NCBI GenBank assembly: GCA_034421495.1
Contig: DAOUKI010000025.1
Coordinates: 1 to 35,077, forward strand
DNA: 35,077 nucleotides
From: Dehalococcoidia bacterium
GTDB lineage: Bacteria; Chloroflexota; Dehalococcoidia; Lucifugimonadales; QGNO01
Reading direction: 5' to 3'
The position numbers and the translations under genes are program-made. The notes under the pieces are model-generated. The model saw nothing but the letters and a program-made list of their open reading frames with translations. It did no database searches and was not told where the DNA came from. Positions 17,489-31,065 of this stretch are shown piece by piece; position 1 is the first letter of the stretch, and each line of letters begins with the position of its first letter.

Positions 17489-17645
17489 TTCCGGGCAAGC
17501 TCGTACGGAAATTTATCATATCCATGTAACTCTTACGTTACTTATAGGCCTTTTAACTGTGACTTATTGTAACTTTTTCGACTAGTTAGCGTAATTTCCT
17601 CTGTCCGTGTTGAAACCGAGTCTGGGGTTAACACACTTCACCGAC

Positions 17646-17674
17646 TTGACAGCCCCCAAGAAAAACGTTACTCT
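17646..17674 (+). promoter_or_regulatory. Candidate sigma-70-type promoter for the 17751 small gene
   Basis: TTGACA (17646-17651), a 17-nt spacer, then TACTCT (17669-17674), within an AT-rich divergent intergenic region. Pattern match only. Confidence 0.35.
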
Positions 17675-17750
17675 GCCACACTTGAGACTAGGTATCATCG
17701 TAGCGCAAGTTGGTGAGCTAGAGCTTGAATATCGATGAACGAGGTGAAAC

Positions 17751-17945
17751 ATGGAGTTCTATAACGTGAAGACCAGGCAAAAAGTGGATATACCGGAGAG
17801 CGGTCTCAGGAAACGTACCGTGGTGCAGAAGAACGGCAAGCATACCTATACCGTTACCGGGGAAGAAAGCGGCACCAAACTGGTTAGATTTGTTAGTAAA
17901 CAACAGTACGATGCCTTGCAAGTGCCTGAGGTTGAGGGCTCCTGA
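17751..17945 (+). CDS. Small (64 aa) basic hypothetical protein
   Basis: GAGGTG lies 4 nt upstream of the ATG. The sequence MEFYNVKTRQKVDIPESGLRKRTVVQKNGKHTYTVTGEESGTKLVRFVS looks like a small beta-rich protein. I cannot name a family with confidence. Confidence 0.6.
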   Translation: MEFYNVKTRQKVDIPESGLRKRTVVQKNGKHTYTVTGEESGTKLVRFVSKQQYDALQVPEVEGS

Positions 17946-17954
17946 GGAGACGCT

Positions 17955-18548
17955 ATGTGGTGGTTCAAACAAGCGGTACTCCGTCCGACTTTCCCTGATG
18001 TCCAGGCGATGCACCCATGGTTTCTGGACTACGAGCAGTTGGAGCCAGGTGTCAGGGAGTTGGTGTGGACATTAAACCAGACCGATATCGTAGAAACCCT
18101 CTCCTCCTGTGAAGGTCACCCGGAGTTGCCATACTGGTGGGAGGACACTGGTGGAACGGCTTACGTCCTGTGCTTGGTGACCAATCCCAGCCGGTGGGCC
18201 CAGGTCCTGCATCAGTTACGGCAGCTGGCCCAGGACTGGAACGATGTCCAGTTGATAGTACAAGATGAACAGGGTGAACAAGGTGAACAGGAGCAGTGGC
18301 TGGGGTTTCAAGTCAGCCATGCCCAACCGGAATCTGCCCGCAACGCCCTAGACCAAGCCATTAGCCAGGCTAACGAGTTGATTAAAGAGTACTTGGATCA
18401 TGATGTCGTTGCTATAACCTCAGCCCGACGTGGACAGGAGGGCCATGCCCAAAATGGTCCTCACGGCTTGTTGGAGGATGAAGGCAAAGCTAGGGGAAAG
18501 GCCAACAGATCTACGGAGGTATCCTTCGCTGAATTGTCGGATACCTAG
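17955..18548 (+). CDS. Hypothetical protein (197 aa) with an acidic Q/E-rich low-complexity insert
   Basis: Starts 9 nt after the previous stop. Contains QDEQGEQGEQEQ. No motif recognised. An internal start at MHPWFLDYEQ is possible. Confidence 0.5.
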   Translation: MWWFKQAVLRPTFPDVQAMHPWFLDYEQLEPGVRELVWTLNQTDIVETLSSCEGHPELPYWWEDTGGTAYVLCLVTNPSRWAQVLHQLRQLAQDWNDVQLIVQDEQGEQGEQEQWLGFQVSHAQPESARNALDQAISQANELIKEYLDHDVVAITSARRGQEGHAQNGPHGLLEDEGKARGKANRSTEVSFAELSDT

Positions 18549-18707
18549 GAACGGCAAAGAAGCGGAAAGAAACTGAGCAGGCGCTAAGCCTATGCTCTCG
18601 GATGTAGACAAGTCCCCAACCATGCGGGCTGGACTACGCCCGTATGCACGTCCAAAACCCCCCTAACGTGAAGGCTCCAGATTTTGCCCAGTCATGGCCG
18701 GCCGATT

Positions 18708-18766
18708 TTGACAATAGACAGAACCATCTTTGAGCTTTGGCTAGGCGGGTTGTGAGCCTCGGGACC
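18708..18766. repeat. Copy 1 of an imperfect direct repeat flanking the ArsR-VOC cassette
   Basis: TTGACAATAGACAGAACCATCTTTGAGCTTTGG...GAGCCTCGGGACC compared with copy 2, TTGACGGTAGACAGAACCGTCTTCGAGCTTTGG...GAGCCTGGGAGCC. Confidence 0.6.
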
Positions 18767-18905
18767 ACCACCATGACCGAAAGTCCGAGCCTCTCTTCAG
18801 GTGTGCCAACGTGTCCTGTACCGCAAACTTTTGGTTGGGAGTTCGCTTCACCCACTCCTTCAAATGGCTAGGGATGTGGTTCCTGCCAGCCTGGGGAATT
18901 GCCTC

Positions 18906-18953
18906 TTGACATGCAATCCTATGGTTGCGTATAGTCTGTGTGAATGCACACAG
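18906..18953 (+). promoter_or_regulatory. Candidate promoter plus palindromic operator of the ArsR-family gene
   Basis: TTGACA (18906-11), an 18-nt spacer, TATAGT (18930-35). It is immediately followed by the inverted repeat CTGTGTG-aatg-CACACAG (18936-18953), which contains the ATG (18944). Confidence 0.45.
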
Positions 18954-19216
18954 ACCTAGTCTTCAGGGCACTCGCGGACCCAATACGAAGGTTGATGCTG
19001 GACGAGCTCTCTGAGCGCAACGAGCAGACGCTCTACGAGCTCACAGCGCGCCTGATAATGCGCCATGAAGTCGCCATCTCCCGACAGGCCCTGGCCAAGC
19101 ACATTGATCTCCTGGAAAAAGCAGGGCTCGTAAGCTCAGAGAAGCGTGGCAAATATCGGATGCTTGTCTTCAACGATGAACCCCTCAGGGCTGTCATGGA
19201 TCGATGGCTCAAGTGA
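18944..19216 (+). CDS. ArsR/SmtB-family winged-helix transcriptional regulator
   Basis: FRALADPIRRLMLDEL.....T..EL......S....S.HI..L..AGLV......G fits the ArsR HTH pattern. Confidence 0.85.
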   Translation: MHTDLVFRALADPIRRLMLDELSERNEQTLYELTARLIMRHEVAISRQALAKHIDLLEKAGLVSSEKRGKYRMLVFNDEPLRAVMDRWLK

Positions 19217-19244
19217 CACTATGAGAAGAAAAAGGAGGCCGGAA

Positions 19245-19628
19245 ATGCGCATTACGCTCACCAGTGTTTTCGTAAGTGACCAGGATGAAGCTCGAAGGTT
19301 CTACACGGAGACCCTCGGCTTTGTGAAGAAGCACGACGTCCCCGTTGGGGAATTCAAATGGCTTACCGTAGTCTCGCCCGATGACCCGGATGGGACCGAG
19401 CTTCTGCTCGAACCAAATGAAAACCCGGTAGCACAAGAATTTCAGAAAGGGATATTTGACCAAGGCATCCCAGCGGCATCCTTTGGCGTTACGGACATCC
19501 ACGCAGAGTATGAGAAACTGAAGTCACTGGGTGTAGCTTTTACGATGGGGCCGACGGAAATGGCCAACGTCACTATTGCGGTCTTTGACGACACCTGCGG
19601 CAACCTGATCCAAATGATGCAGACGTAA
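19245..19628 (+). CDS. Single-domain VOC (glyoxalase-fold) family protein
   Basis: Track ORF 19146..19628. The ATG at 19245 lies 6 nt after AAAGGAGG and gives MRITLTSVFVSDQDEARRFYTETLGF, a typical VOC N-terminus. Confidence 0.85.
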   Translation: MRITLTSVFVSDQDEARRFYTETLGFVKKHDVPVGEFKWLTVVSPDDPDGTELLLEPNENPVAQEFQKGIFDQGIPAASFGVTDIHAEYEKLKSLGVAFTMGPTEMANVTIAVFDDTCGNLIQMMQT

Positions 19629-19701
19629 CTACAATCGACCAGACTGCCCTGTTTGGGACGCGGGTGCAGTCTAGCCCGTCCAGGCACCTGGTGGGCCTAA
19701 G

Positions 19702-19752
19702 TTGACGGTAGACAGAACCGTCTTCGAGCTTTGGATCGGGAGCCTGGGAGCC
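19702..19752. repeat. Copy 2 of the imperfect direct repeat (see 18708)
   Basis: See copy 1. It lies between the VOC stop and the 3' end of the island's last gene. Confidence 0.6.
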
Positions 19753-19782
19753 GATACTCGTAGTGCGGGACGCCTCGACGCA

Positions 19783-22089
19783 CTATAGACCTATGGAATT
19801 CTGCTCGTCCAAGTAAAGGATGTCGCAGCGAACCTCTAGTCGCTTTCGTTCATCAGCTCTTGGCACGAACATATCAGCAATCTCATCTGGGATCGGAATG
19901 AAGGTGCGATTCTTGGTGAGTATGGTCGATGTGGTCCTTGGACCTCGCCCGGACGGAGCTTCGACGAGTCCAGGACAAAGGATGTCGTAATACAAACCAA
20001 AGCGTCTGGAGTGGTGTTGAAATACAAAGATCACCTTCCGCCCACCCCAGACAATCTCTGTTGAGTGCGGCTGAAGAAAGAAATCTCCTTTTTCGCGCTG
20101 AACTCTGTCGCTTATCGAGAGAAAGCACCTGTATCCGTTTACTGGCTGCTCACTTGTGAGAAATCTCGCGCTCGTCTCCTCTTCCCGTCGGTCTATCCCT
20201 GGTCTGGCTTCAAAAGGATCGGGAATGCTCTCCTCTTCAGGCTCGTCTCCAATCTCTTTAACGACCGAAGAAAGCAGTTCCGTACCTGCATTGCTCACTT
20301 CAACATAAGATCGATCCGTGTCGGTCAGTCTCCTCGTAGCTTCGACGACCGTAAGCCGTCCAGCGTGCAGTTCCTCAAGAATCCCCTCTAGGTCAGCCCT
20401 ATCTTCAAGGTCGTACTCAAACCATTCTCGGTTTGAGCGAAGATGACGCAAGAAGGCTTCGGCTCCTTCCCGTGTGCTACTAGGCACGAGCTTAGAGACA
20501 CGCGGGAACACGGTTGATCTAACAAAGTCCTTGACAAAGGGACTGAACGCATTGAAGTCGTCGGTATAAAGAGCCAGCAACGGTGCAATACTACCCGAAG
20601 TTGGGTCAAGGTAGATCACAACCGGGGTGTTTGTACTAGTGACGAGAAGCGCAAGTCCACCGGTTATCGATCCAAATCTGATGTCAACGGGAAGGAAATA
20701 GTCCTCTTCCAGTATTCGGGTCAACCTAGTAGCAAGTGCCGTATGACCAAAATTCAAACTAGACGCAGGGATCTCTTCCTTCACCTTGGGCGTGACATCT
20801 ACTTCTGTTACCCCGTGTATCCTCAAATAGCCGAGCTCGCAGTCACGTCTAGGGGTCCGCCGAGACAGTACGACGAGCGGTTCATCTTCACTCGCATACG
20901 TTTGGACCACAGACTCATCACGACCTCCGTAATACCTCAACCCGCTACGTCCAACAATTGACGATAGTGCTTGCGGTTCACCACCAGGTCGAGGTGTAAC
21001 TTCAAGATGACCACAAAGCGAGAATTGGTTTGTGGCAACTATCCATTGAAGGAAGCCATCGTTTGAGAAAGACTCGGGATGTTCGGCGGCGATTGGCGAA
21101 ACCAGATTGTCCAGAGCGGAGATGATTCGTTGCAACAACTGACTTGATGCAGCGTCCAGGGCTTCACGGCCAGCTGTGGGTTGTAAGAAAGGGAGATCTA
21201 TCACGCCACCCCAGCGGTATCCAGACTGTGCTGCAACGTTGGCAAGGCCGAAGCCAGACCGTAATGTACGAATCATATTATGACCCTGCACTAATACGAT
21301 CGCCCCCGGCCTCCCGAGCCCTGTCTCAGACTTGAGGCCCTCAAGGATTATCCGAAGCTCTCCAGAAGCCATGCCATGTAGTTCCAGATTGCCGGACAGG
21401 ATATCGGCCAACGAGATGTCTGTCCTGTGCTCGTACCACGTATGCCTTTCGGATGGCAACGCATCCCTATGTTTGGCACCGCTGATCTTCTCGGTATTGA
21501 AGAAAACGGGTATGTCTACAAACTCCACGAATTCCCGAAGATATGTACGTGCGTCCTGAACAGACAACCCATGTCCCGGCGTAAGGTGAGCTCGTACGGT
21601 AGTCCCCGGTGCGCCGGTCTGTTCAGCTGGTGTTACGGATATACTCGGAGTGTCCGTCGATAACTCAGACTTCAAGACTGATGACAAGGTTCGTTCACCT
21701 GTAATTGCGGACTCACTTTCAACGGAGAGTTCGTCGGCGACACCGAAGTTGGCCATCGCTCCGATTCCAAACGTGCCTACCACACCAGCCGCCCGAGCGG
21801 CATCGCTATTCTTGCCACTCTTCCCCGCGTACCAAAAGTTTGCCTCAATCTCCTCTGCCGTCATACCAATTCCATTGTCGGTGACAACGACCTCTTCGCC
21901 ATTGACGGTCACATGGATTTCGGGTTCAAACTGGTGGCCCTCCGCTTGTCTCATCCGTACTGCGTCGAAAGCGTTTTGCGTGTTCTCCCTGAGTAGCGCG
22001 AGTGGAGATTGATAAATCTGATCGGCAAGCAACTCAAGTATTCGTGAGAACTCGACTTTGAACGCTATTCTCTTCTCAGTTGAAGTCAT
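19783..22089 (-). CDS. GHKL (HSP90/MORC-like, HATPase_c_3-type) ATPase with a ~600-aa uncharacterised C-terminal region
   Basis: Bergerat-fold motifs in the first ~115 aa: LLRENTQNAFDA (motif I, E..N..DA), VTDNGIGM (motif II, DxGxG), GTFGIGAMA (motif III). The start ATG overlaps the upstream stop (ATGA at 22089-22086). Confidence 0.8.
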   Translation of the reverse strand: MTSTEKRIAFKVEFSRILELLADQIYQSPLALLRENTQNAFDAVRMRQAEGHQFEPEIHVTVNGEEVVVTDNGIGMTAEEIEANFWYAGKSGKNSDAARAAGVVGTFGIGAMANFGVADELSVESESAITGERTLSSVLKSELSTDTPSISVTPAEQTGAPGTTVRAHLTPGHGLSVQDARTYLREFVEFVDIPVFFNTEKISGAKHRDALPSERHTWYEHRTDISLADILSGNLELHGMASGELRIILEGLKSETGLGRPGAIVLVQGHNMIRTLRSGFGLANVAAQSGYRWGGVIDLPFLQPTAGREALDAASSQLLQRIISALDNLVSPIAAEHPESFSNDGFLQWIVATNQFSLCGHLEVTPRPGGEPQALSSIVGRSGLRYYGGRDESVVQTYASEDEPLVVLSRRTPRRDCELGYLRIHGVTEVDVTPKVKEEIPASSLNFGHTALATRLTRILEEDYFLPVDIRFGSITGGLALLVTSTNTPVVIYLDPTSGSIAPLLALYTDDFNAFSPFVKDFVRSTVFPRVSKLVPSSTREGAEAFLRHLRSNREWFEYDLEDRADLEGILEELHAGRLTVVEATRRLTDTDRSYVEVSNAGTELLSSVVKEIGDEPEEESIPDPFEARPGIDRREEETSARFLTSEQPVNGYRCFLSISDRVQREKGDFFLQPHSTEIVWGGRKVIFVFQHHSRRFGLYYDILCPGLVEAPSGRGPRTTSTILTKNRTFIPIPDEIADMFVPRADERKRLEVRCDILYLDEQNSIGL

Positions 22090-23507
22090 GAGATCACCTT
22101 TCTGGCAGCGATGACCGCAGTGAGCTCCCTAAATATAGATGGGTCAATCAATGCCGACATAGTCTGGAGGCGCATTGAGGCTTCAGTGAATCGACGACAC
22201 TCAAGCAGAAGAGAAATGACTTTGACAGCCTCGTCTTGACTCTGAGGCGGGTCCAAGAGCCTGAGCAACTCTTCATGTCGCCCTAGGCCCTCTAGGGCCT
22301 TAATCTGGATCTGCCGTTTAACGTGTAGGTGGTCAGAGCCGCTTGATGGAAGAAGGTCCAATGCCTCCTTATGCCTGCCAAGCGTTACTGCCGTCATGGC
22401 ATCATCAAGCCTCTGTGTCACAGTGGGTCCTTTAGGACGTGCCGGAGAGTGATGAAGAGGCAAAGTGATGAATGTGTTACCCCCGAAGTCATCTCGATGC
22501 GAGCCGGTAAACACACCTGCGGGCGACATCGCTCTTACGTGAGTAGTAACTGTCTCGCTGTCTGGATTAATCTCTACAATGTTGAATTGTCGACGCTCTC
22601 CCATAGGAAGCTCCCTATCCCCTACTGCAAACGAACCTGCACCAATCACAGCCATTGACGTCAGGTTGGGGAGACGCAGTTCGAACGGTGCTGCGCCGGC
22701 GTAGTGGTGATGTCCGTGCAGACCTAGGCTGAATCCGAAATCAATTAGCCTGTGGACAATACGCACGTCCATGTAGTCATGTGCACGTGGCCCACCTAGA
22801 ACCCCATGGTGCCACGCTGCAATGGCAACTGGGGCCTGCGAATCCTGAAGTAGTTCCCGAGCCGTGGCTAGTGCCTTAGAGTCGATCTCTCCGACATGGC
22901 AGAAGCAGTCGTTCCCATGCCAAGAGGCGAAGCCCACGACAATTAACCCAAGCGACGGATATTCAATCCGAACAATATCGTTATCCTGCAACAATGGACT
23001 TGAGTCTAGACTAGCATAGAAATCTGCTTGAAATCGCCTGAAGTGTTCAAAGCGAGATTCATACGCATCCCTGTCAACAATCTCGTAGGCTTTCTGCTCC
23101 TTCCAGTTCCAGCGAATAGTGGAGTTGGCCTCAAATGCCTTGACGTCTATGCCGTCAGGACAGGTCTCTAGTGGATTCATCGCTTGTAGAGCGCGACTCC
23201 AGTGGACATCGTGGTTCCCAGGGACAATGATGACCCGCGATAGGTCCGAGTCAACTATCTCATCTGTCAATTGCTGTAGAAAGGTTCCGACCTCGGCATA
23301 TTGGCTGGCGATCTCGGAGTCAGGGTTTGGATGATTCACACTCGTACCCTGGATAAGGTCGCCGGTCACGACTATCACTTCGGGATACGGAATGCACTCC
23401 TTCTCCCATCGCTTAGTATCGCTGAGAATCGCAGATAGGAGCTCATCATTGTCGAGACGTGGCGTTGACGTCCGATGTAGGTCTGAGATGTGAAGCAAGG
23501 TAGGCAC
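22086..23507 (-). CDS. Calcineurin-like metallophosphoesterase with a C-terminal TPR-like helical tail
   Basis: MPE motifs in order: HISDLH, VTGDLIQG, VPGNHDV, AAWHH, LHGHHH. Track ORF 22086..23606 starts at a TTG and overlaps the upstream gene by 95 nt. GTG at 23507 is in frame, lies 4 nt after the upstream TGA and behind AGGTGA, and gives (M)PTLLHISDLH, so it is preferred. Confidence 0.85.
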   Translation of the reverse strand: MPTLLHISDLHRTSTPRLDNDELLSAILSDTKRWEKECIPYPEVIVVTGDLIQGTSVNHPNPDSEIASQYAEVGTFLQQLTDEIVDSDLSRVIIVPGNHDVHWSRALQAMNPLETCPDGIDVKAFEANSTIRWNWKEQKAYEIVDRDAYESRFEHFRRFQADFYASLDSSPLLQDNDIVRIEYPSLGLIVVGFASWHGNDCFCHVGEIDSKALATARELLQDSQAPVAIAAWHHGVLGGPRAHDYMDVRIVHRLIDFGFSLGLHGHHHYAGAAPFELRLPNLTSMAVIGAGSFAVGDRELPMGERRQFNIVEINPDSETVTTHVRAMSPAGVFTGSHRDDFGGNTFITLPLHHSPARPKGPTVTQRLDDAMTAVTLGRHKEALDLLPSSGSDHLHVKRQIQIKALEGLGRHEELLRLLDPPQSQDEAVKVISLLLECRRFTEASMRLQTMSALIDPSIFRELTAVIAARKVIS

Positions 23508-23511
23508 GGGA

Positions 23512-24147
23512 TCACCTAAGACTGAATCTCGACAGCATACGCTGATAGGTATCCTTAGTATCCAACAGGCTATTCGATTCCTGACGCTTGAGTTCCCATA
23601 GCTCAATGCCTACTGCCTCTGACCCCATCTCCATCAAATTCTCGTTAGCGGGGCTGTCCAGCGTCAGCAGCGACTTGCCAGAAGCGGCGAGCTTGCGAGC
23701 GAAGGCCTCCGTCTTGCTCCTAGGCGCGGCGTGGGCGATGAAGACTCGGCCTGCCAGTGAAGCCACTAGGTCGTTGCGCTGAGCAGCGTGCTCCGCCGTG
23801 GGCCTTCGAACCGTGGCCGGGAAGGGCGAAAGGACCAGCAAGCGACCGTCGTCTAGGGCGGGGCGCCAGTCGCGTGGGATGCGCATGTTGTCGATGCCGC
23901 GAGCCGGGCAGACGACCACAGGTTGCTTGCCACGCAGCAGGAGGCGTAGACACTCCCTCTCCATCGGTGTTTGGAAGCCGCCGATGACTGGGACGCCGGC
24001 ATCGCGCATGGCCCTGGCAAGGTCGTAGGTTTTCAGTATAAGGTCGCCCGGGCAGCGATTAGAGCAGAACAGGGCCGTTAGCGGCTCGTCGAGCAGGCTG
24101 AGATTACCCTTCGACTTGCCTTTCAGTAGAAGTTCCACGTTCACCAT
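23512..24147 (-). CDS. Soluble DprA/Smf-like SLOG-superfamily Rossmann protein (putative nucleotide sensor/processor)
   Basis: Colinear with the DprA core. VPVIGGFQTPMERECLRLLL aligns with GG..GID..AH..AL. LSPFP.....P....AAQRNDLVASLAGRVFIAHAAPRSKTEAFARKLAASGKSLLTL aligns with SE.P.G..P....F..RNR.IA.LS...VV.EA...SG...TA..A...G. I saw no TM segment. Confidence 0.7.
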   Translation of the reverse strand: MVNVELLLKGKSKGNLSLLDEPLTALFCSNRCPGDLILKTYDLARAMRDAGVPVIGGFQTPMERECLRLLLRGKQPVVVCPARGIDNMRIPRDWRPALDDGRLLVLSPFPATVRRPTAEHAAQRNDLVASLAGRVFIAHAAPRSKTEAFARKLAASGKSLLTLDSPANENLMEMGSEAVGIELWELKRQESNSLLDTKDTYQRMLSRFSLR

Positions 24148-24163
24148 GCGGCACCCATCCGCC

Positions 24164-25003
24164 TTAGTCTCCTATGCAGAACAGGTCGTTGAACGCTGCC
24201 CTGGTCTTGCAGGAGTTGACCTTGCCCCTAATCTGTCCAAGCTGAGCTGAGACTCCTTTACGGAGTTTGGAGCCTGCAGGTCCTAAATACTCGTCTACAT
24301 ATGTCGACTGCCCCGTGGGATCAGGGATTGGACTCATTACCGCTTTCATCGAGTATGTGAGGAAGTGCAAGAGCATGGACCTCGAGTCCAATTCGCCTTT
24401 ATAGCCCTTGAAGGCTCCGACTGCCAGAGATTCCATGTGGTATCCCTTGATTTTTCTGCCCTCGTGGGTAATGAAGCAGTCCGCGAGGGCCTTAGCAAAC
24501 TTGATTATAGGTACGACTCTCCCACCCCTTGAGTTGTTCACTTTGGCAAGCCTGTCAAGAAAGCGCTCAGGCTGTACGATGTTACTCCACTGGGTGCTGC
24601 CGGGATCGGCGATACGGAAGCCGTTGGTCGTCCGTATCGCTGGCAGTATCTGGATTTCGGATTTATCCGCGTAGCCGACCGTTACTGCCAGTTTGCCTTT
24701 GCTAACGGGATTCTTGGGGAGCCGCCGTTGGATCGTGTCGGCCACGTACGCTATAACCTTCGAGGGAGGTTTATTCTTGAGTGACGACTGGTTCACTATC
24801 AAGAGTACGTCGACATCACTGAGGCCTGTCACGTAAGTGCTCTTCTGGACGGAGCCGCCGAACTTTGTCTGCACCACATGATCGTCTTCGTGGCTGAGCA
24901 TGCTGCACAGACCATTAAGATGTCTCGCAACAGCTTTCCCACTTCGGCGTTTGTACTGCACGAGCAAGTTCTCGCAGTACCTATTGAAATTGTCCTTTGG
25001 CAC
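24164..25003 (-). CDS. SMODS/CD-NTase-like Pol-beta-fold nucleotidyltransferase
   Basis: GTG start 3 nt after the PIN gene's TAA and behind GGAGG. It carries the hG[GS]x9-13Dh[DE]h motif FGGSVQKSTYVTGLSDVDVLLIV. Downstream it has the layout usual in minimal CD-NTases: ...VTVGY....EIQILPA..., then W....P..F...L...N...GG...P.IKF.K. Confidence 0.7.
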   Translation of the reverse strand: MPKDNFNRYCENLLVQYKRRSGKAVARHLNGLCSMLSHEDDHVVQTKFGGSVQKSTYVTGLSDVDVLLIVNQSSLKNKPPSKVIAYVADTIQRRLPKNPVSKGKLAVTVGYADKSEIQILPAIRTTNGFRIADPGSTQWSNIVQPERFLDRLAKVNNSRGGRVVPIIKFAKALADCFITHEGRKIKGYHMESLAVGAFKGYKGELDSRSMLLHFLTYSMKAVMSPIPDPTGQSTYVDEYLGPAGSKLRKGVSAQLGQIRGKVNSCKTRAAFNDLFCIGD

Positions 25004-25006
25004 GGG

Positions 25007-25456
25007 TTACGCCTCCGCCTCGACCAGATCGTCCAAGACGACGACGGGTAAGCCGTCGACACGGCGAAAGTCGGTGTCGTTACTGATGAAGAGCGTGCAG
25101 CCGGCGCTAAGGGCTGTGGCCGCGTGCAGGGCGTCGGACGTCGCCAACCCCGTCTCGGCACGGATTCGGGCGGCGTCTTCCCAAATCGCCAACGTAGCGG
25201 GGACGAGTTGCGTCTCTGCGGCGGCGAAGATGGACCGAAACAGCATCTCAAGGCGAGCGTTGCCTTCTCGCAGGGGTTTGATCAGCGTTTCCAATACAAC
25301 GAGTTCGCTGCTAGCGATAGTGAACCGGCCCGCTCTGGCTTCTTGCCACATTGGGGCCAGCAATTCTCGATACGGCTCAATACGCTCAACGCTGTAGATG
25401 ATCGCATTGGCGTCGATGTAGACTGAACCACCAGTGGGCAGCGTCAACGACCCCAT
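25007..25456 (-). CDS. vapC: PIN-domain toxin (VapC-like)
   Basis: VYIDANAIIY (first acidic residue), SELVVLE, SDALHAATA and ISNDTDF are typical PIN motifs. It overlaps the upstream antitoxin gene by 13 nt. Confidence 0.85.
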   Translation of the reverse strand: MGSLTLPTGGSVYIDANAIIYSVERIEPYRELLAPMWQEARAGRFTIASSELVVLETLIKPLREGNARLEMLFRSIFAAAETQLVPATLAIWEDAARIRAETGLATSDALHAATALSAGCTLFISNDTDFRRVDGLPVVVLDDLVEAEA

Positions 25457-25677
25457 GCTTCCTTCTCCTCCGCCAGATACGCCTTTACTTCTGCGGCTGT
25501 CTTGAAGACCAAGTGCCCCGGCGCCTCGGCCAGAATGTCAACGACTGACCGCCTCGCCACAGCAGAGACGGGACTCACCACCACGTCCACGTTCTCACCC
25601 TCGGTCAACTCCTGATCGACGATCTCTATCTTGCCGCCGGGTTGTACCGTCGTCCGTATGTGCAACGCCTTTTGCAT
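25444..25677 (-). CDS. VapB-like antitoxin (77 aa, AbrB/SpoVT-like N-terminal half)
   Basis: Position and overlap with the PIN gene. GAGGAGG lies upstream. The N-terminus MQKALHIRTTVQPGGKIEIVDQELTEGENVDVVV resembles swapped-hairpin antitoxins. Its first 25 codons are the source of the recurrent leader module. Confidence 0.7.
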   Translation of the reverse strand: MQKALHIRTTVQPGGKIEIVDQELTEGENVDVVVSPVSAVARRSVVDILAEAPGHLVFKTAAEVKAYLAEEKEAWGR

Positions 25678-25679
25678 AG

Positions 25680-26933
25680 TTAGCGCCTCCTCTTTGGTGT
25701 AGCGACATACTCCCTGCCGTCGTCAGATTGGATTATGATGGACATATCTATCCCTCCCAGTGGCGACAGTAAGTCCTTCGGTACCTTACTGACTTCTGAC
25801 TGGACTTGAGACGTCTGAATATCTGCGAACCTCCCAAAGTGAACAAGTGCGGAATTAGGCTTGTAGTCCAGAAGCAAGTGAGTAATTCTCACAAGGGAAA
25901 TAGCTGTAAGGCAGATCGGGGTATCCAAGCCAATATCCGAGGGTCCATTTTGGGATTCTCCTCGCAAAGTCAGAGGGTCATTCAACATCCCAAACACATT
26001 GTTGTGGACGTAGGAATGACTCAGCGTGTATATGTCTAGATGCGAGTATCCACCATCCCGCTTGTTCTTTTCGACATGCCCAACTTGCCGCGCTCTGCTC
26101 GGAACATCTAAAGAAGCCTTCGGGTTGTCGGGGGGAGCAGTCCAGCCATCGTGATGTTTTAGATTCCATCCGCTGTACTTGCGTTTCAGTTCAATTAGGG
26201 CTTCATGCGCGAGGAGGTTATTGACATAGAAATAATTGGCTATACTCCAGTCGTTGTACCGTTCGGCCCGAGAGGGCACTTGTGTAGTATCTCTGGCGAT
26301 GTATGCCATGTTTACTTCGATTTCAAACAGCGATCGCCACAATATGATGGCGGATTGAATGTGGCCGCTCCTGCATTGGCTGACTATCACTCGGGCTAAT
26401 GTGCATGCTTGACCGAATAACATGCGGAGTGTGGGGCCTACTTCGCACTTATCTTGTCGGTAGTGTTGCGCCGTGGCCGCCCAGCAGTTAAAGCCATTTG
26501 CAACAAGCTTGTCCAGCCACGTCAGAGATTCGCCCCATTCTCCCTTGATCGCCTTTTCGACTAGCTTCTGTTCCTTGTTAAGCGCCTTGAGTAACGGAGT
26601 TTCTTCACCGGCCCGAAACAGCTCCTGAGTTGCTTCTCTCACCTCCGCTCGTTTTTCCAGTATTCCGATAGCCTGAGAATGAGTGCAAGTAATGGGAGTT
26701 CGATGCTTCATGTGGCGGTGACAATGCTGTAAGCCGGTAGATTCGTCTACAACGCTGGCCTTGCGAGAGCACATCACCCAGGCTCCATTCTTGGGATCAA
26801 ACATGGAGATTCGCCTCACCATACTATCGCAGTTACGTTCTCCATGCTTCCTCTCGAAATTCCAATCCGGGTAGTACATCCCAAATGCTAGAGGGACGAT
26901 TGTCGACGGTTTCGGTTTCCGGAAAATCTTCAT
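25680..26933 (-). CDS. Hypothetical protein (417 aa); Cys/His-rich N-terminal part, helical C-terminal part
   Basis: Long ORF, 2 nt from the next gene and 11 nt after the previous one. CSRK...LQHCHRHMKH...CTH may bind a metal. ILWRSLFEIEVNMAYIARD reminds me of DUF5677-type helical domains; this is from weak memory and unverified. Confidence 0.6.
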   Translation of the reverse strand: MKIFRKPKPSTIVPLAFGMYYPDWNFERKHGERNCDSMVRRISMFDPKNGAWVMCSRKASVVDESTGLQHCHRHMKHRTPITCTHSQAIGILEKRAEVREATQELFRAGEETPLLKALNKEQKLVEKAIKGEWGESLTWLDKLVANGFNCWAATAQHYRQDKCEVGPTLRMLFGQACTLARVIVSQCRSGHIQSAIILWRSLFEIEVNMAYIARDTTQVPSRAERYNDWSIANYFYVNNLLAHEALIELKRKYSGWNLKHHDGWTAPPDNPKASLDVPSRARQVGHVEKNKRDGGYSHLDIYTLSHSYVHNNVFGMLNDPLTLRGESQNGPSDIGLDTPICLTAISLVRITHLLLDYKPNSALVHFGRFADIQTSQVQSEVSKVPKDLLSPLGGIDMSIIIQSDDGREYVATPKRRR

Positions 26934-26944
26934 CGCTACATCAC

Positions 26945-27598
26945 TTACGCTGCCCGGAACTCCTTATCAAACACAAGTTCGTCGTATTTGGTAGTGATTC
27001 CGGAGTCCTTCAATATTCGAGAGCCAAGGGTTCGGCATATCAGATAGACAGCGAGAGAGTCCGCTATTGAAAACATGTGCCCCTCTGCGTAGGTATCTTC
27101 GATAGTGTGCTTTGATTTGTTATACACCGCTTTGGTTAGCTCCCATAGGGTTTCTACCAGATCAGCGTCAAGAGACCGGGCCTTACCGCGTTTCAGTATC
27201 ATGCCGATGGAAAGAGGACCGTCAATCTGGAGTTGCCCCTTAAGGCTGTTCTCCACATGGAGGCAGGACATGGTCACAATACTTCGGGTAAGCCATTCGA
27301 GGGAGAGATGTTGAAGGTAGCTACTCACGTACTGGATAGGCCTAAAGATAGGTCGGTCCTGTATGCTATAGACGGCTGCCAGTCCGCCACCACTAGTTCT
27401 CTCATTGATGTTGTGTTGCCCCAACCCAGGTATCGTCTTATCTATAAGGGTCAAATCCCGGAGTGCGGAATCTCCATCATCTACGGCAACGGCGCCAATC
27501 CGAAGAACTTCGGAGTGATAGGATGAGAGACCAGCCGCCTGAAGTATCTGATAGATCTCAGGCCGTAAGCCATTGGAGTGATTGCTGTCGTTATACAT
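26945..27598 (-). CDS. Hypothetical protein (217 aa)
   Basis: Long ORF preceded by a degenerate leader module that supplies GGGAGGG/GAGTAGGA as a ribosome-binding site. No confident motif recognised. Confidence 0.6.
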   Translation of the reverse strand: MYNDSNHSNGLRPEIYQILQAAGLSSYHSEVLRIGAVAVDDGDSALRDLTLIDKTIPGLGQHNINERTSGGGLAAVYSIQDRPIFRPIQYVSSYLQHLSLEWLTRSIVTMSCLHVENSLKGQLQIDGPLSIGMILKRGKARSLDADLVETLWELTKAVYNKSKHTIEDTYAEGHMFSIADSLAVYLICRTLGSRILKDSGITTKYDELVFDKEFRAA

Positions 27599-27674
27599 TC
27601 CTACTCAGCCCCTGGCCCTCCCGCTGCTTGATCTCGTAGCTTATAAAGTCCCCCGCCTTGCCGCCCTACCACCG
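27599..27674 (-). repeat. Degenerate partial copy (R4) of the antitoxin-derived leader module
   Basis: On the coding strand, GACTTTATAAGCTACGAGATCAAGCAGCGGGAGGGC...CTGAGTAGGA-ATG compares with R3, GACTTCATCATCAACTACGACATCAAGTATCGCATGGGTCGGGAGGGCTGAGTAGGAG. There is no ATG; the 5' part is missing and the hicB stop abuts it. Confidence 0.55.
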
Positions 27675-27878
27675 CTATACGCTAATGAGTTCGTACGACT
27701 GCGGCTCGGGAACGGGTAAGCCGTCTTCCTCAAGGGCCTCGACATAGAGGCGTATGGCCTCTCGAATAAGCTCGCACACCTCTTCCCTGGTATTCGCGGC
27801 GGCCACGCATCCGGGCAAGTCCGGCACGTGGGCGCCATAGCTGGTTGCCCCCTTCTCTATCACCACGGCGTATCTCAT
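27675..27878 (-). CDS. hicB: HicB-family antitoxin
   Basis: MRYAVVIEKGATSYGAHVPDLPGCVAAANTREEVCELIREAI..Y.E is the classic HicB/UPF0150 N-terminal domain. The ATG at 27878 lies behind GAAGGAG; the track ORF extends to 27926. Confidence 0.85.
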   Translation of the reverse strand: MRYAVVIEKGATSYGAHVPDLPGCVAAANTREEVCELIREAIRLYVEALEEDGLPVPEPQSYELISV

Positions 27879-27880
27879 AA

Positions 27881-28078
27881 TCAACTCCTTCTTTGTAAAC
27901 CAGCCTGCTTCAGGACATTGTTCCACGTTCCCTGGGGCATATCAACGCCCGGATGTCCTGCAATAACGACTATCCCCTGCTTGGCCGGGTGCTTGTACAC
28001 GCGGTGACTGCCCCGAGTCCGCACCAGGCGCCAGCCGTCCCGTTCTACCATGCGAATGGCGTCCCTAACCTTTGGCAC
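27881..28078 (-). CDS. hicA: HicA-family mRNA interferase toxin
   Basis: The sequence (V->M)PKVRDAIRMVERDGWRLVRTRGSHRVYKHP...VVIAGH.G.D.P.GT....KQAGL has the HicA/YcfA signature G.SH...(H). GTG start. hicA precedes hicB, as is usual. Confidence 0.85.
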   Translation of the reverse strand: MPKVRDAIRMVERDGWRLVRTRGSHRVYKHPAKQGIVVIAGHPGVDMPQGTWNNVLKQAGLQRRS

Positions 28079-28114
28079 AGCCCATTTCCAATGATATTCC
28101 TTCCGTTGTGGTCA

Positions 28115-29191
28115 TCATCGCCAGTCTCCCCATTCCGAGGAATGCAAAGGAAACATTTGTGGGAATCGGTTCCACGAATCATAATCTGGATCTCTATAGT
28201 GCTCCTCGTCCTCTAAGACCTTGACAAAGCGCACGGCATCGCGAGCTAAGCTCAAGAGATTGTAGTTCGCTGGATTCGGCAAAGCGTCGCCCCCGTCCTT
28301 CATCCTGATCCGATACTCATCCCAAGTCTTCCTCTCGGAATTTATGTGTCCCTCCATTTCCCAGATGGCCCGTGTCAGTCCCCCTAGCTCCATGAGTGAT
28401 GGACCAGTGATTCGGATAGCTTGGGTGCATTGATCGGCCAGTTCCTCGAACTTATTAAAAACCCACCGCAGGGAGTCGTATGAATCTATACCTTTCAAGA
28501 ACGCCTCGCGTTCTAGGGGCCTGTGTTTTGTTAGCCTCATAATCAAGTCGCGAGACTCTCTGTAGTCCCGTGGGCGGTCCCGGGAGTCGTGACTACCCTG
28601 CCTCCCTGGGTGGTCGAACCATTGCTGTGCAGTTACCGTCACAGCATGCATAGCCGTATTTCGAAGTCTTCGAATAAACCACTCAAGGAGCTTGGGTGTC
28701 TGGGCGCGCGCCATGTCTGCAATCTCATCTGGCGAAGCACGTCGCGTTGAGCTTCCATCCCTGACATAGACGGCGTTGACGTCCACTTTGCCGTACTTGC
28801 TGACCGCGTAGACAGGACGTGGTTGAAGTGGGATGCATAGCACACCGATCTCCTTGTCTTCAGTCTCAAACGGCGAGTAGCTAAACTCGGCTGATCTGTT
28901 GGTCTTGGAATTGACAAATTGGTGCAGGTTGGCGTCGTCTAGGTGGTCCGCAACTCCAACGACATTACTGCGCCCACCCTGTACCTCTTCTACGCCGATC
29001 AAGATATACGCAGTGCGATAACGTTGAGTATTGACAAAGGCGAGTATGTCTTTTAGCAACTTACTCTTGTCTGTATCGCTTGTATTGTTGAAGCGGTACT
29101 GCTCTCTCTTGAAGTCAAGAGTAGGCCCTTCTTCCATATTCAGGAGAGCCTCCAACATCTCGCTATTGAAGGGTGGGCCTTGCATGGTCAT
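28115..29191 (-). CDS. AlbA_2 (Schlafen-like, 'divergent AAA') domain protein with an uncharacterised C-terminal half
   Basis: N-terminal pattern: E.LL..EEGPTLDFKRE........K..LLKDILAFVNT......YILIGVEE.....VVGV. The C-terminal ~180 aa carries no motif I recognise. Confidence 0.7.
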   Translation of the reverse strand: MTMQGPPFNSEMLEALLNMEEGPTLDFKREQYRFNNTSDTDKSKLLKDILAFVNTQRYRTAYILIGVEEVQGGRSNVVGVADHLDDANLHQFVNSKTNRSAEFSYSPFETEDKEIGVLCIPLQPRPVYAVSKYGKVDVNAVYVRDGSSTRRASPDEIADMARAQTPKLLEWFIRRLRNTAMHAVTVTAQQWFDHPGRQGSHDSRDRPRDYRESRDLIMRLTKHRPLEREAFLKGIDSYDSLRWVFNKFEELADQCTQAIRITGPSLMELGGLTRAIWEMEGHINSERKTWDEYRIRMKDGGDALPNPANYNLLSLARDAVRFVKVLEDEEHYRDPDYDSWNRFPQMFPLHSSEWGDWR

Positions 29192-29203
29192 AATCCGTCT
29201 GCT

Positions 29204-29325
29204 CTACCCTTCCCGACCCATGCGATACTTGCTGTCATAGTTGATGGTGAAGTCCAACTCTGGGCTGACAAGCTCACCTTGCACCGGGCTGAACTGTAGT
29301 CCTCACATGCAACGCTTTTTTGCAT
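29204..29325 (-). repeat. Leader module copy R1 (indel-scarred)
   Basis: Starts ATGCAAAAAAGCGTTGCATGTGAGGACTACAGTTCAGCCCGG, which with one A removed reads MQKALHVRTTVQPG. The tail frame reads VSPELDFTINYDSKYRMGREG-TAG. In the actual ATG frame a 45-codon ORF (29188..29325) ends in an ATGA overlap with the AlbA_2 start. GGGAGA lies upstream. Confidence 0.8.
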
Positions 29326-29336
29326 AAATGTCTCCC

Positions 29337-29917
29337 TTATGGAGTTGCTGGATCAGACCAGTCCCTCTCAAACGGATTACAGAGTTCCGTAAAAGTTTCG
29401 GGGTCAATCGTTGGAAACAGCGTCTCAAGAATGCTTCCGGTTGCGTTGTCCAGAGCCCCACAAGCTTCTCTGATCCGTCGGCCTGCTGTCAAAGGATCAG
29501 GGGGCAATCTTGAAACAAGTTCTAGAGCGCGACGATATGAAGCCATGCCGATACGCTGAGGTTCTAGTCCGTAACGCTGTGCCGCATAGCGCGAAAAGGC
29601 GGCCGCCATTCCCTCCGCCAACCAATTCCCAGTCCCTGGTCTGGGGTTCAATAAATGCACTGTCTCATGGGCTAATTCATAGACGGTTGTTGGCCAGTAC
29701 CTTCGGCGTTCCGACTCAATTCTGCGAACGCCCCATCTAGATTTGGTGTGTTGCGAATGTACGGACCATCGTCTGCAAAAACTGGTTGGTAAATGGTCTT
29801 AGAGGCGTCCCGTGGTCCAAGAATGTCCTCAGCAAGCTTCAACAGGTGCACCTGCATCGACCATAGCCCACTGGGGTCTTCCCTTGGCGACGGAGTCGCC
29901 TGCAGGGTTAGCTCCAT
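29337..29917 (-). pseudogene. HExxH metallopeptidase-like gene split by a frameshift (track ORFs 29672..29917 and 29337..29660)
   Basis: The HExxH motif (YELAHETVHLL) is encoded at 29655-29669. It straddles the artificial GTG 'start' of the 107-aa ORF, whose frame stays open upstream of that GTG. The 81-aa ORF ends at 29672 in a different frame. A 1-nt indel around 29672-29710 would join them. Confidence 0.55.
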
Positions 29918-29920
29918 AGC

Positions 29921-30042
29921 CTACCCCTCCCGCCCCATGCGATACTTGATGTCGTAGTTGATGGTGAATCCAACTCCGGGCTGGAAACCTCTATCCTGCC
30001 GCCTGGTTGAACAGTCGTCCTAACGTGCAGCGCCTTTTCCAT
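29921..30042 (-). repeat. Leader module copy R2 (1-nt deletion)
   Basis: MEKALHVRTTVQPGGRIEVSSPELD, then a 1-nt deletion (TTGGA-TTC). The ancestral tail frame reads (F)TINYDIKYRMGREG-TAG and ends 3 nt before the downstream ATG. The actual 44-aa ORF is 29908..30042. Confidence 0.8.
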
Positions 30043-30131
30043 TCTTCTAGTCCCCCTTTACAGGATGAGTTCCCTACGGCTCCTGCAATGCGTCGGAAGG
30101 CTCTTCGGGGCTCTTCCAATCGCCAATTGAT

Positions 30132-30881
30132 TCATGTGATGCTGGCATCATCCCATACGACTTCAGCGGCCAGATACTCGCGTAGTACCATCCTTACTAG
30201 GATTCCGCCTGATGCTTGAGCGACGGCGTATCGGTAGACCTCGTCTTGAACATCCTGCCAGCTATCAAAGTAGACTTCCTGGGAACCTGCTGGCCGGTGG
30301 ACGATGAAAGCCCTCTGCATCATTCTGCTGCCCACTTCCGGCCAACCTGAGCCATGCGGAACATTCTCAAACTGATCAATCTGTCGAGCTGTCATCACCT
30401 GAATTGGGCGGACTGACACATGAGAAGGCCACGCAAACATAGGTTCACCCATTTCGTAGAGAACGTGCCCGCGGGCGTTCTTCACGATGACCCGCTGTAT
30501 ACGGTCGAGTTCAGGTTCCCACAAGACTTCGACATCGCCCCACAGGTTTCCTTGAACCGTTCGGGACCGGTCAATCCGGTTGCCCAATCGGGGGCTATGG
30601 GTCAATATGCCGGAGGCCACAGGAAATCTGACCGGGTCTGGTCTTGTGGAGCCACTGAGCACCGAGCCGAGAAAGGCGATCAGGTACTCCTCATCCGATG
30701 AAAAGCTGGCGTTACATTGTCGGCACACTTGCACTACGGGCAGGTTCTCAGGGTAAGGAGGGTTCAAGAGACCCCGAGTCGGCACGTGATCCCGATTGGA
30801 ATCATCAGGTCTCAGCCCGCTCCCACAATGGATGCAGAAGCCCTTGTTTCTACTATCGCTGTAGTCGGTCAGTTGGTCCAT
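30132..30881 (-). CDS. HNH endonuclease-family protein (HNH_5-like) with an uncharacterised C-terminal domain
   Basis: CIHCGSGL.....NRDHVPTRGL........LPVVQVCRQCNASFSSDEEY matches the CxxC...DH...N...CxxCN beta-beta-alpha-metal finger arrangement. Confidence 0.75.
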   Translation of the reverse strand: MDQLTDYSDSRNKGFCIHCGSGLRPDDSNRDHVPTRGLLNPPYPENLPVVQVCRQCNASFSSDEEYLIAFLGSVLSGSTRPDPVRFPVASGILTHSPRLGNRIDRSRTVQGNLWGDVEVLWEPELDRIQRVIVKNARGHVLYEMGEPMFAWPSHVSVRPIQVMTARQIDQFENVPHGSGWPEVGSRMMQRAFIVHRPAGSQEVYFDSWQDVQDEVYRYAVAQASGGILVRMVLREYLAAEVVWDDASIT

Positions 30882-30897
30882 ATGCGTAGTCTCCTAC

Positions 30898-31020
30898 TCA
30901 GCCCTCCCGACCCATGCGATACTTGATGTCGTAGTTGATGATGAAGTCCAACTCCGGGCTGGCAACCTCCACCCTGCCGCCGGGCAGTACCGTCGTCCTT
31001 ACGTGCAGTGCCTTTTGCAT
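30898..31020 (-). CDS. Intact 40-aa leader ORF (module copy R3): MQKALHVRTTVLPGGRVEVASPELDFIINYDIKYRMGREG
   Basis: GAGGAGGA lies 7 nt upstream of the ATG. This is the only copy with one uninterrupted frame. Its TGA is followed by GTAGGAG and, 16 nt later, the HNH gene's ATG. Translation has not been shown. Confidence 0.4.
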   Translation of the reverse strand: MQKALHVRTTVLPGGRVEVASPELDFIINYDIKYRMGREG

Positions 31021-31065
31021 GTCACCGTCCTCCTCGTCTACAAGTTAACCGTCACGTATCTCACG

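Follow-up and report, generated by a model that had tools for sequence, protein, structure and literature searches.

Four tightly packed genes in a Dehalococcoidia genome read as a defence-island mosaic with a candidate metallophosphoesterase-HSP90 defence pair

Do four genes that follow each other almost without gaps in the genome of a Dehalococcoidia bacterium form one defence system, or do they merely stand side by side? We addressed this question in contig DAOUKI010000025.1 of assembly GCA_034421495.1, of which the whole stretch analysed (35,077 nucleotides, positions 1 to 35,077 of the forward strand) is called the window below. The four genes are intact and co-directional on the minus strand and code, in the order in which they are read, for a CD-NTase (a nucleotidyltransferase, NTase below; 24164..25003, 279 amino acids [aa]), a DprA-like protein of the SLOG superfamily (23512..24147, 211 aa), a metallophosphoesterase (MPE; 22086..23507, 473 aa) and a GHKL ATPase (19783..22089, 768 aa). 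A first-pass annotation had described them as a single system in which an NTase signal passes through the SLOG protein to an MPE-GHKL effector. Our analysis favors, at a probability of about two in three, a different reading in which the region is a mosaic stretch of a defence island gained by horizontal transfer and in which the MPE and the GHKL protein, a paralogue of HSP90, constitute an autonomous candidate nucleotide-targeting defence pair.

We followed the MPE and GHKL genes through 20 related loci (numbered with an L below), comprising 13 loci from GTDB, where a scan of one genome per species was seeded with the GHKL protein, three metagenome contigs, two IMG/VR contigs, a Pseudomonas aeruginosa IncP-2 plasmid and a Rhizobium plasmid. 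The MPE is paired with the GHKL protein in all 20 loci, which represent at least seven phyla and include plasmids and prophage edges, and the two genes usually share a 4-nt overlap. This co-conservation bears out the earlier view of the two as a working pair. The GTDB loci belong to Dehalococcoidia, Caldilineaceae, other Chloroflexota, Latescibacterota, Actinomycetota (Acidimicrobiia), Alphaproteobacteria, Binatia and Acidobacteriota; in each of the 13 the MPE gene is immediately upstream of the GHKL gene, and the GHKL proteins are 68-97% identical in a patchy, horizontally spread distribution. The IMG/VR pairs retain the 4-nt overlap at 33-36% (GHKL) and 28-32% (MPE) identity, with one adjoining a serine recombinase and the other lying near Mu Gam-like genes. 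An intact pair is also found on three IncP-2 megaplasmids of P. aeruginosa, pPUV-9 being one, and the Rhizobium plasmid has the pair as well. The pPUV-9 genes IST90_RS02510/RS02515 (locus L030, NZ_MT732187.1 420627-424396) have an MvaT-family gene and an ABC three-component system in their vicinity, and the RefSeq names of the plasmid homologues go no further than 'metallophosphoesterase' and 'ATP-binding protein'. MPE and HSP90 paralogue are an obligate two-gene pair, coupled in translation and with the active sites of both proteins intact; the pair has spread horizontally and is found beside defence genes. Window positions 19783-23507 hold this same cassette, an MPE of ~474 aa with a helical tail followed by an HSP90 paralogue of ~770 aa, in a defence and mobile context.

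The neighbours of the pair elsewhere include a type IIG restriction-modification (RM) system, a type III-like enzyme, a BsuBI/PstI RM system, HEC-01 and an ABC three-component system. In L006 (3289-15433) the pair is located inside an Hma system with HmaA upstream and HmaB downstream, in L010 (5311-18592) the order is HmaB, a 93-aa open reading frame (ORF), MPE-GHKL, a second HmaB and HmaC, and L007 has the same Hma layout plus a HEC-01A gene. The MPE of L011 is split by an insertion sequence (IS)-like element, L013 has a transposase-like ORF between MPE and GHKL, and in L028 (5647-6525) the MPE is truncated to 292 aa and the GHKL gene is lost. These disruptions are typical of defence cargo. 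As for the two upstream genes, an NTase is in the operon with MPE-GHKL in only two of the 20 loci (L001 and L002) and a DprA-like gene in six, while 14 of the 20 have neither adjoining. The co-occurrence expected of a single NTase-SLOG-MPE-GHKL system thus largely fails. L001 and L002, which are close Dehalococcoidia relatives, are the sole repeats of the four-gene order, with L002 carrying an additional gene and L028 showing the order in part.

A complementary picture emerged when the DprA-like gene was used as the point of reference, with 15 DprA-like loci compared and seven DprA-like clusters sampled without regard to GHKL. The seven sampled clusters have vapBC upstream in all cases, an NTase in five and a complete MPE-GHKL pair in one. 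In the window these upstream genes are a vapB-like antitoxin gene (25444..25677, minus strand, 77 aa), for which Pfam profiles give no match, and an overlapping vapC for a PIN-domain toxin (25007..25456, minus strand, 149 aa; Pfam PIN 4e-21). Copies of vapB that are 57-83% identical are present upstream of dprA-like in 15/15 loci, L002 having a 39-aa fragment only, and vapC is 65-91% identical in 14 loci. The NTase, on the other hand, is directly upstream of dprA-like in nine of the 15, at a distance of about 9-16 nt in most, and absent from the other six; a vapBC-dprA-like-MPE-GHKL order lacking the NTase is found in L004 and L019-21.

What follows the DprA-like gene is interchangeable. The cargo is MPE-GHKL in L019-21, the truncated MPE in L028, a membrane-anchored protein of 128-141 aa in L017 and L018, a full-length Dsr2 (PADLOC 3e-162) in L026, L027 and L029, and a Vsr-Dcm methylase with a GHKL-type restriction enzyme (a type II RM system) in L022 and L023. 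Dsr2 or the transmembrane (TM) protein follows a vapBC-NTase-dprA-like backbone, and the type II RM system fills the slot in NTase-less backbones. The spacing between dprA-like and cargo in L029 and L022 is the same 4 nt as in the window. Dsr2 and RM systems work autonomously, and for this reason we regard the slot behind dprA-like as a cassette hotspot. No recombination motif or attC-like motif was found at the dprA-like/cargo junctions beyond the stop codon context. We conclude that vapB-vapC-[CD-NTase]-dprA-like is a lineage-specific Dehalococcoidia backbone, that the 3' end of dprA-like is a recombination hotspot and that the NTase behaves as a ~0.9-kb cassette which may or may not be present between vapC and dprA-like. 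Note that the small membrane-anchored protein (L017:7628-8053, L018:7666-8052) is conserved, with an N-terminal TM/signal anchor and a beta-rich C-terminal domain, and has no Pfam or PADLOC match.

The edges of these modules can be placed in the window. Nucleotide homology to other phyla extends exactly from the GHKL stop to the MPE start (19783-23507); the adjoining segment 23512-23622 codes for the tail of the DprA-like protein in MPE-linked alleles, 23623-24109 for its core, about 24157-25016 corresponds to the NTase cassette and 25026-25691 to the vapBC module. In the NTase-less loci homology jumps from window position 24109 to 25026. Synonymous divergence (dS) between the window and L001 amounts to 0.14 for GHKL, 0.21 for MPE, 0.55 for DprA-like and 1.07 for the NTase, an ~8-fold spread, and the window NTase is closest (88% identical) to that of L018, a locus that has no MPE-GHKL. 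Given these dS values, breakpoints and NTase affinity, the four genes do not have a single shared history, and we rate the four-gene 'system' as a juxtaposition.

The junctions themselves are as tight as the first-pass annotation had stated. The vapC stop (TAA, 25007-25009) is followed after three nucleotides ('ccc') by the NTase GTG at 25003, the NTase stop (TAA, 24164-24166) after 16 nt by the dprA-like ATG at 24147, and the dprA-like stop (TGA, 23512-23514) after 4 nt ('tccc') by the MPE GTG at 23507, with the MPE stop and the GHKL start overlapping as ATGA at 22086-22089. The preference given to the GTG start of the MPE was also right, as homology in other phyla begins exactly at 23507; a longer 506-aa form from a TTG at 23606 is an ORF-caller artefact. 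All four genes are under purifying selection, with ratios of nonsynonymous to synonymous divergence (dN/dS) of 0.06-0.26, and a TM-like hydrophobic stretch is present in none of the four proteins (Kyte-Doolittle 19-mer maximum <=1.46). A promoter and terminator scan of 19000-28500 returned counts equal to the shuffle expectation and is uninformative on transcription units.

We then asked what each protein is. The domain identities and the defence setting proposed earlier were right, as judged from Pfam, NCBIfam and PADLOC matches and from the island genes, and the NTase, MPE and Bergerat motifs that had been read are all present; the exception is the ATPase, which had been likened to MORC. The GHKL protein matches Pfam HATPase_c_3 (2e-7) and has the Bergerat motifs E35xxxN39xxDA, D71NGIG and G105TFGIG, which like the MPE motifs are invariant in 35-37 homologues. 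Its Bergerat ATPase occupies aa 1-~230 (nt 21400-22089) and is followed by an HSP90-like middle region to about aa 535. The NCBIfam model PRK14083 of the HSP90 family is matched at 2e-28 (99 bits vs a cut-off of 455) and HtpG at 70 bits vs 371, with these matches confined to the first ~200-230 residues, so the protein is not an HtpG orthologue. HSP90/TRAP1 N-domains are the best PDB sequence matches (3e-13), and Foldseek aligns full-length TRAP1, HtpG and HSP90 at 2e-20 over about 640-700 columns. All of the top 50 Foldseek matches and the listed PDB sequence matches are HSP90-family, indicating that the GHKL protein is an HSP90 paralogue and not a MORC protein. The part from aa 230 to 768 is a family of its own with 277 clusters at 50% identity, the complete members of which are all about 770 aa long. 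Within it a C-terminal region (aa ~640-768, nt 19786-20170) is extremely conserved (FFLQPHST..VWGG.K..F.F.HHS..FGLYYD..C), with invariant His, Cys and Asp residues, and might serve as a sensor or else as a further catalytic domain. The C-terminal 230 aa have no match among PDB sequences, and there is no MEEVD-type tail at the C-terminus.

The MPE matches Pfam Metallophos (5e-13) and contains five motifs (D9xH11, G49D50, G97NHD100, W232HH and G265HHH268), all of which are invariant in 37 sequences. Its catalytic domain spans aa 1-~350 and is followed by a helical-repeat, TPR-like tail at aa ~360-473 (nt 22089-22430). The AlphaFold2 (AF2) model is confident (pLDDT 83.5) and, together with TPR/PPR Foldseek matches over the last ~110 residues, supports the tail that the first-pass annotation had proposed. 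The best Foldseek match is a model of Bacillus subtilis YydB (E 3e-14), which aligns at full length over 530 columns with a TM-score of only 0.49 and a large root-mean-square deviation. Next, at E values of about 1e-9 to 1e-8, are the cyclic-nucleotide phosphodiesterases Rv0805 (1.5e-9) and Lmo2642, SMPDL3A (5e-9) and purple acid phosphatases, with Mre11 behind these phosphodiesterases and phosphatases at 2.6e-5 or worse. The structural comparison thus puts the MPE in a phosphodiesterase-like branch, not the PPP protein-phosphatase branch, and as modelled it is closer to cyclic-nucleotide/nucleotide phosphodiesterases than to Mre11. The Mre11/Rad50 analogy drawn earlier is therefore weak, the more so since the partner is a GHKL/HSP90 and not an ABC/SMC ATPase. 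PDB sequences gave no useful match to the MPE and none to YydB at the sequence level. The NCBIfam model DS9_1 of the anti-phage phosphoesterase DS-9A is matched weakly (41.9 bits vs a cut-off of 420, E 5.6e-11, profile positions 194-483) across the whole phosphoesterase domain, and the DS-8 model is also matched weakly. PADLOC-DB v2 and NCBIfam 20.0 contain no above-cut-off or full-length match for either the MPE or the GHKL protein.

The NTase passes the cut-off of NCBIfam CBASS_cyclase_b (216.4 bits vs 200), matches the PADLOC cyclase model PDLC00790 of CBASS (cyclic-oligonucleotide-based antiphage signalling system) at 5e-91 and Pfam SMODS at 1e-9, so its assignment to a signalling family survived the profile check. 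The active site reads as G49GS-x11-D63VD65. The sole solved relative is the type IV CBASS CdnD (PDB 9ntn, 7e-48), whose catalytic DVD, numbered D94/D96 (Wassarman et al. 2025, bioRxiv 10.1101/2025.04.06.647259), aligns with D63/D65; the alignment spans CdnD residues 42-298 and leaves the first ~30 CdnD residues without a counterpart. Judged from its sequence, this CBASS-type cyclase is intact and akin to type IV CdnD, and a recognisable Cap effector is lacking. Specifically, the window has no significant PADLOC CBASS effector match, the nearest being the MPE against PDLC00736 at 0.0034, which agrees with the earlier statement that no classical CBASS effector is present. It also has no Cap9 (QueC-like) or Cap10 (TGT-like) gene, the operon neighbours being vapBC and dprA-like. 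PADLOC models recognise the cyclase only and return no named system, again as had been proposed.

NTase dN/dS values are 0.16-0.24. A metagenome scan seeded with the NTase gave only three loci (an orphan NTase, a truncated contig and a type IV CBASS), which are too few for statistics. A relative of 41% identity in L016 belongs to a canonical type IV operon with QueC-like, TGT-like, cyclase, 2TM and OGG-like genes. Caldilineaceae-type contigs L005 (19840-20694) and L014 (2553-3410) carry a 67-68% identical NTase alone, with no evident partner gene, and these lone NTases are under purifying selection (dN/dS 0.21 vs the window NTase). In the NTase of L017 (6211-6984) the GS motif has been deleted with the reading frame preserved.

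The DprA-like protein passes the Pfam DNA_processg_A cut-off (31.6 bits vs 29.6, 1e-7) and has a weak match to PADLOC PsyrA (5e-13). It is soluble and consists of the Rossmann domain only, with no TM segment (Kyte-Doolittle 19-mer maximum 0.68) and no fused effector, just as had been stated earlier. There was no useful match among PDB sequences, and a search of viral contigs with this query found no locus. Its homologues are a very tight family of more than 120 clusters at 76-91% identity; the gene is frameshifted in L015 (5325-5821). The core (aa ~13-175) is nearly identical across all DprA-like loci and is conserved equally in loci with and without the NTase. The tail (aa 176-211), in contrast, differs with each type of downstream cargo, the form present here occurring only in alleles followed by MPE-GHKL. 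The suggested link between NTase and SLOG protein accordingly stands in part: nine loci have the NTase right before the DprA-like gene, and the DprA-like protein is conserved just as well where there is no NTase. As the NTase recurrently precedes the SLOG gene, a synthetase-receptor pair is plausible, and we tentatively place the chance that the DprA-like protein is the receptor for the NTase product slightly below even. In L002 (7077-7919) an additional 280-aa gene lies between NTase and dprA-like and matches PF18178 (TPALS) at 3e-37 and PADLOC PDLC00759 at 3e-46. This Cap17-like TPALS/SLOG protein has no PNP effector domain, and its last part is a short helix, hydrophobic or amphipathic. Its role may be that of a CBASS effector reduced to the minimum or of a sensor that lacks an effector.

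How, then, do the other explanations fare? An integrated four-gene system, in which the NTase signals upon infection, the DprA-like SLOG protein binds or processes the signal and an MPE-GHKL effector complex is switched on, would account for the tight co-directional packing and for the order repeated in L001, L002 and partly L028. It is also in line with SLOG domains being nucleotide sensors (e.g. ThsA and the TPALS domain of Cap17), with a DprA-like tail restricted to MPE-linked alleles and with an MPE fold that resembles cyclic-nucleotide phosphodiesterases. We nevertheless consider it improbable given the 14 of 20 MPE-GHKL loci with neither upstream gene adjoining, the NTase-less backbones that still carry MPE-GHKL, the other cargo that occupies the same slot with the same 4-nt spacing, the 8-fold gap in dS between NTase and GHKL within one locus pair, and cassette edges that coincide with start and stop codons. 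A slightly better, and still unlikely, explanation restricts the system to the NTase and the DprA-like protein, which would act as a modular CBASS-like generator and receptor with the variable tail coupling the downstream effector; MPE-HSP90 would be autonomous elsewhere and recruited here. Such a pair fits the nine loci with an NTase directly before dprA-like, the effector-like nature of the downstream genes when the NTase is present (TM protein, SIR2, MPE), the co-variation of the tail with cargo, and the established SIR2-SLOG fusion architecture of ThsA together with PADLOC STALD matches. It fits less well with the SIR2 cargo being a full-length Dsr2 that works alone, with an RM system in the same slot, with a DprA-like core that is equally conserved without the NTase, with the separate dedicated TPALS sensor right after the NTase in L002 and with the NTases that stand alone in L005 and L014.

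The remaining alternative concerns the pair itself, which might be a non-immune stress or proteostasis module on mobile elements, formed by a chaperone paralogue and a TPR-phosphatase co-factor in the manner of HSP90-PP5. The HSP90 fold extends over most of the GHKL protein with its ATPase motifs intact, the TPR-like tail on a metallophosphatase recalls PP5, and PDB 8gae is among the GHKL Foldseek matches. Opposed to these similarities are the patchy horizontal spread across phyla at 68-97% identity, the consistent location among RM, Hma, HEC-01 and ABC three-component genes and at prophage and plasmid sites, the frequent IS disruption and the placement of the MPE in the phosphodiesterase-like and not the PPP protein-phosphatase branch. 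This alternative is accordingly very improbable.

Several observations weigh against our preferred reading of a mosaic with an autonomous MPE-HSP90 pair. Many of the DprA-like loci derive from closely related Dehalococcoidia elements, with L004, L019 and L020 being near-duplicates, so independent events are fewer than loci. The DS-9A/Calcineurin-CE model score is far below its cut-off (42 vs 420 bits), and the substrate is assigned by analogy. The AF2 model of the GHKL protein has low confidence over the last ~230 residues. The DprA-like tail specific to MPE-linked alleles also fits an adaptor role. Finally, with gaps of <=16 nt, no detectable internal promoter or terminator, purifying selection on all four genes and the arrangement kept in L001 and L002, a common transcript is conceivable, and so is cross-talk gained within this lineage. 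In one form of such cross-talk the CD-NTase and DprA-like protein are wired to MPE-HSP90 in this Dehalococcoidia lineage: the DprA-like tail would dock either on the MPE, at its TPR tail, or on the HSP90 paralogue, and a CBASS-type nucleotide signal would gate the HSP90-controlled phosphodiesterase. We regard this wiring as improbable; in its wider form, the SLOG protein would be an adaptor standing by itself that links a single synthetase to exchangeable effectors (Dsr2, the TM protein, MPE-HSP90).

Under the mosaic reading, we infer as follows that MPE-HSP90 serves in defence, what the MPE acts on, that the HSP90 paralogue is a sensor and that the two proteins dock through the TPR-like tail. 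Sensing or switching would fall to the HSP90-paralogue ATPase, which as a clamp driven by ATP would recognise a cue of infection in the role that STAND/NACHT NTPases have elsewhere. The MPE would dock on it through the TPR-like tail and, once activated, would cleave by hydrolysis either free nucleotides or molecules derived from them (dNTP/dNDP, NAD+, cyclic nucleotides), leading to growth arrest or abortive infection. By analogy such hydrolysis is probably the effector chemistry, because the MPE combines a phosphodiesterase-like fold with distant relations to DS-8/DS-9 and to PUA-Cal-HAD. The DS-8 and DS-9 metallophosphatases are required for defence and need their catalytic residues (DefensePredictor, PMC13092281), and PUA-Cal-HAD depletes dNTPs, its Calcineurin-CE domain converting dADP to dAMP and being able to cleave NAD+ in vitro (10.64898/2026.01.15.699771). 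The MPE pair shares with these systems SMPDL3A-like structural neighbours, a defence-island location and pairing with a second enzyme or NTPase. It differs in having no PUA sensor, HAD partner or NACHT domain, in an MPE that begins directly at motif I (D9xH11) and instead ends in a TPR-like tail and has an HSP90 paralogue as its separate partner, and in family scores far below cut-offs.

Comparison with other known systems likewise reveals partial resemblance. The GHKL protein shares with HtpG and TRAP1 the Bergerat motifs and the N-terminal plus middle architecture of HSP90, but it differs by the distinct conserved C-terminal region, its mobile and defence context and scores below the HtpG equivalog cut-offs. 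PP5 is a eukaryotic TPR-phosphatase that docks on HSP90; the pair resembles HSP90-PP5 in that a metallophosphatase with a TPR-like domain is the partner, but the MPE is not a PPP-family protein phosphatase. YydB of the B. subtilis YydB-YydD pair (integrative model PDB 9a6c), the best structural match to the MPE, likewise has a partner protein. Mre11-Rad50/SbcCD similarly consists of a calcineurin-fold phosphoesterase encoded beside an ATPase, but the ATPase here is of the GHKL/HSP90 and not the ABC/SMC type.

As for the upstream genes, the cyclase resembles that of type IV CBASS in its conserved DVD, in passing the CBASS cyclase model and in aligning to CdnD residues 42-298, but the window has no Cap9/Cap10 and no counterpart of the ~30-aa extension at the CdnD N-terminus, on which deazaguanylation takes place in type IV CBASS (bioRxiv 10.1101/2025.04.06.647259). 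Nor does it have the recognised Cap effector, Cap2/3 or HORMA/TRIP13 of CBASS in general, the sole constant downstream neighbour being the effector-less DprA-like protein. In Hailong an NTase is combined with a membrane effector that has a SLOG-like domain, unlike the DprA-like protein of the window, which has no TM segment. Like the SLOG sensors (ThsA SIR2-SLOG, Cap17 TPALS and the PsyrA antitoxin), the DprA-like protein has a DprA/SLOG Rossmann core beside a nucleotide synthetase, but it has no fused effector and is unchanged in NTase-less loci, and the bona fide TPALS sensor is a different gene that is present in L002 only. Conserved flanks with interchangeable cargo are also a feature of defence hotspots such as the Hma-embedded candidates, the anchor here being the 3' end of dprA-like.

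In regard to the MPE-HSP90 pair, Nicastro, Burroughs, Iyer and Aravind are said to have predicted in 2023 HSP90- or HSP70-related modules coupled to nucleotide-targeting (Calcineurin-CE-type) effectors. Literature searches returned no description of the MPE-HSP90 pair, and it is not mentioned in Payne et al. 2024 (bioRxiv 10.1101/2024.01.29.577857) or its supplements.

The wider setting of the four genes is a lower-GC island at 17500..33000 (no strand assigned) with a GC content of 0.45-0.56 vs 0.58-0.63 in the flanks according to the composition profile. Between orf217 and vapB lies a gene for a 417-aa DUF5677 protein (25680-26933, Pfam), which looks like a further inserted cassette; L019, L020 and L029 have orf217 directly before vapB. 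Further along are a HicA/HicB-like toxin-antitoxin pair (27675-28078, assigned by eye), a SLFN_AlbA_2 (Schlafen AlbA_2) protein similar to PADLOC candidate PDC-S50 (28115-29191) and a DUF2971 protein similar to PADLOC candidate PDC-S31 (31066-32268), which add to the genes of defence type in the island. By nucleotide homology, island segments 26947-27601 and 29990-30950 are common to related islands. Just outside the island, 11798-17488 codes for a repetitive 1896-aa protein, probably located at the cell surface, in which many domains of ~100 aa are arranged in tandem and a TM anchor forms the C-terminus; this region has a strong positive GC skew of 0.12-0.20.

Tight packing and plausible domain logic were insufficient in this case for calling a multi-gene system, as comparative genomics split the 'operon'. 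The vapBC-[NTase]-dprA-like backbone marks a Dehalococcoidia defence-cassette hotspot that could be mined for further cargo, and the P. aeruginosa IncP-2 homologues (pPUV-9) put the MPE-HSP90 pair within reach of a tractable host. If MPE-HSP90 is indeed a defence pair, an immune effector of prokaryotes would have an ATPase of the HSP90 type as its sensor or switch. Such an ATPase would be a new counterpart to STAND/NACHT NTPases and would recall HSP90 of eukaryotes, both for its part in NLR immunity and for PP5, the TPR-phosphatase with which it is partnered.

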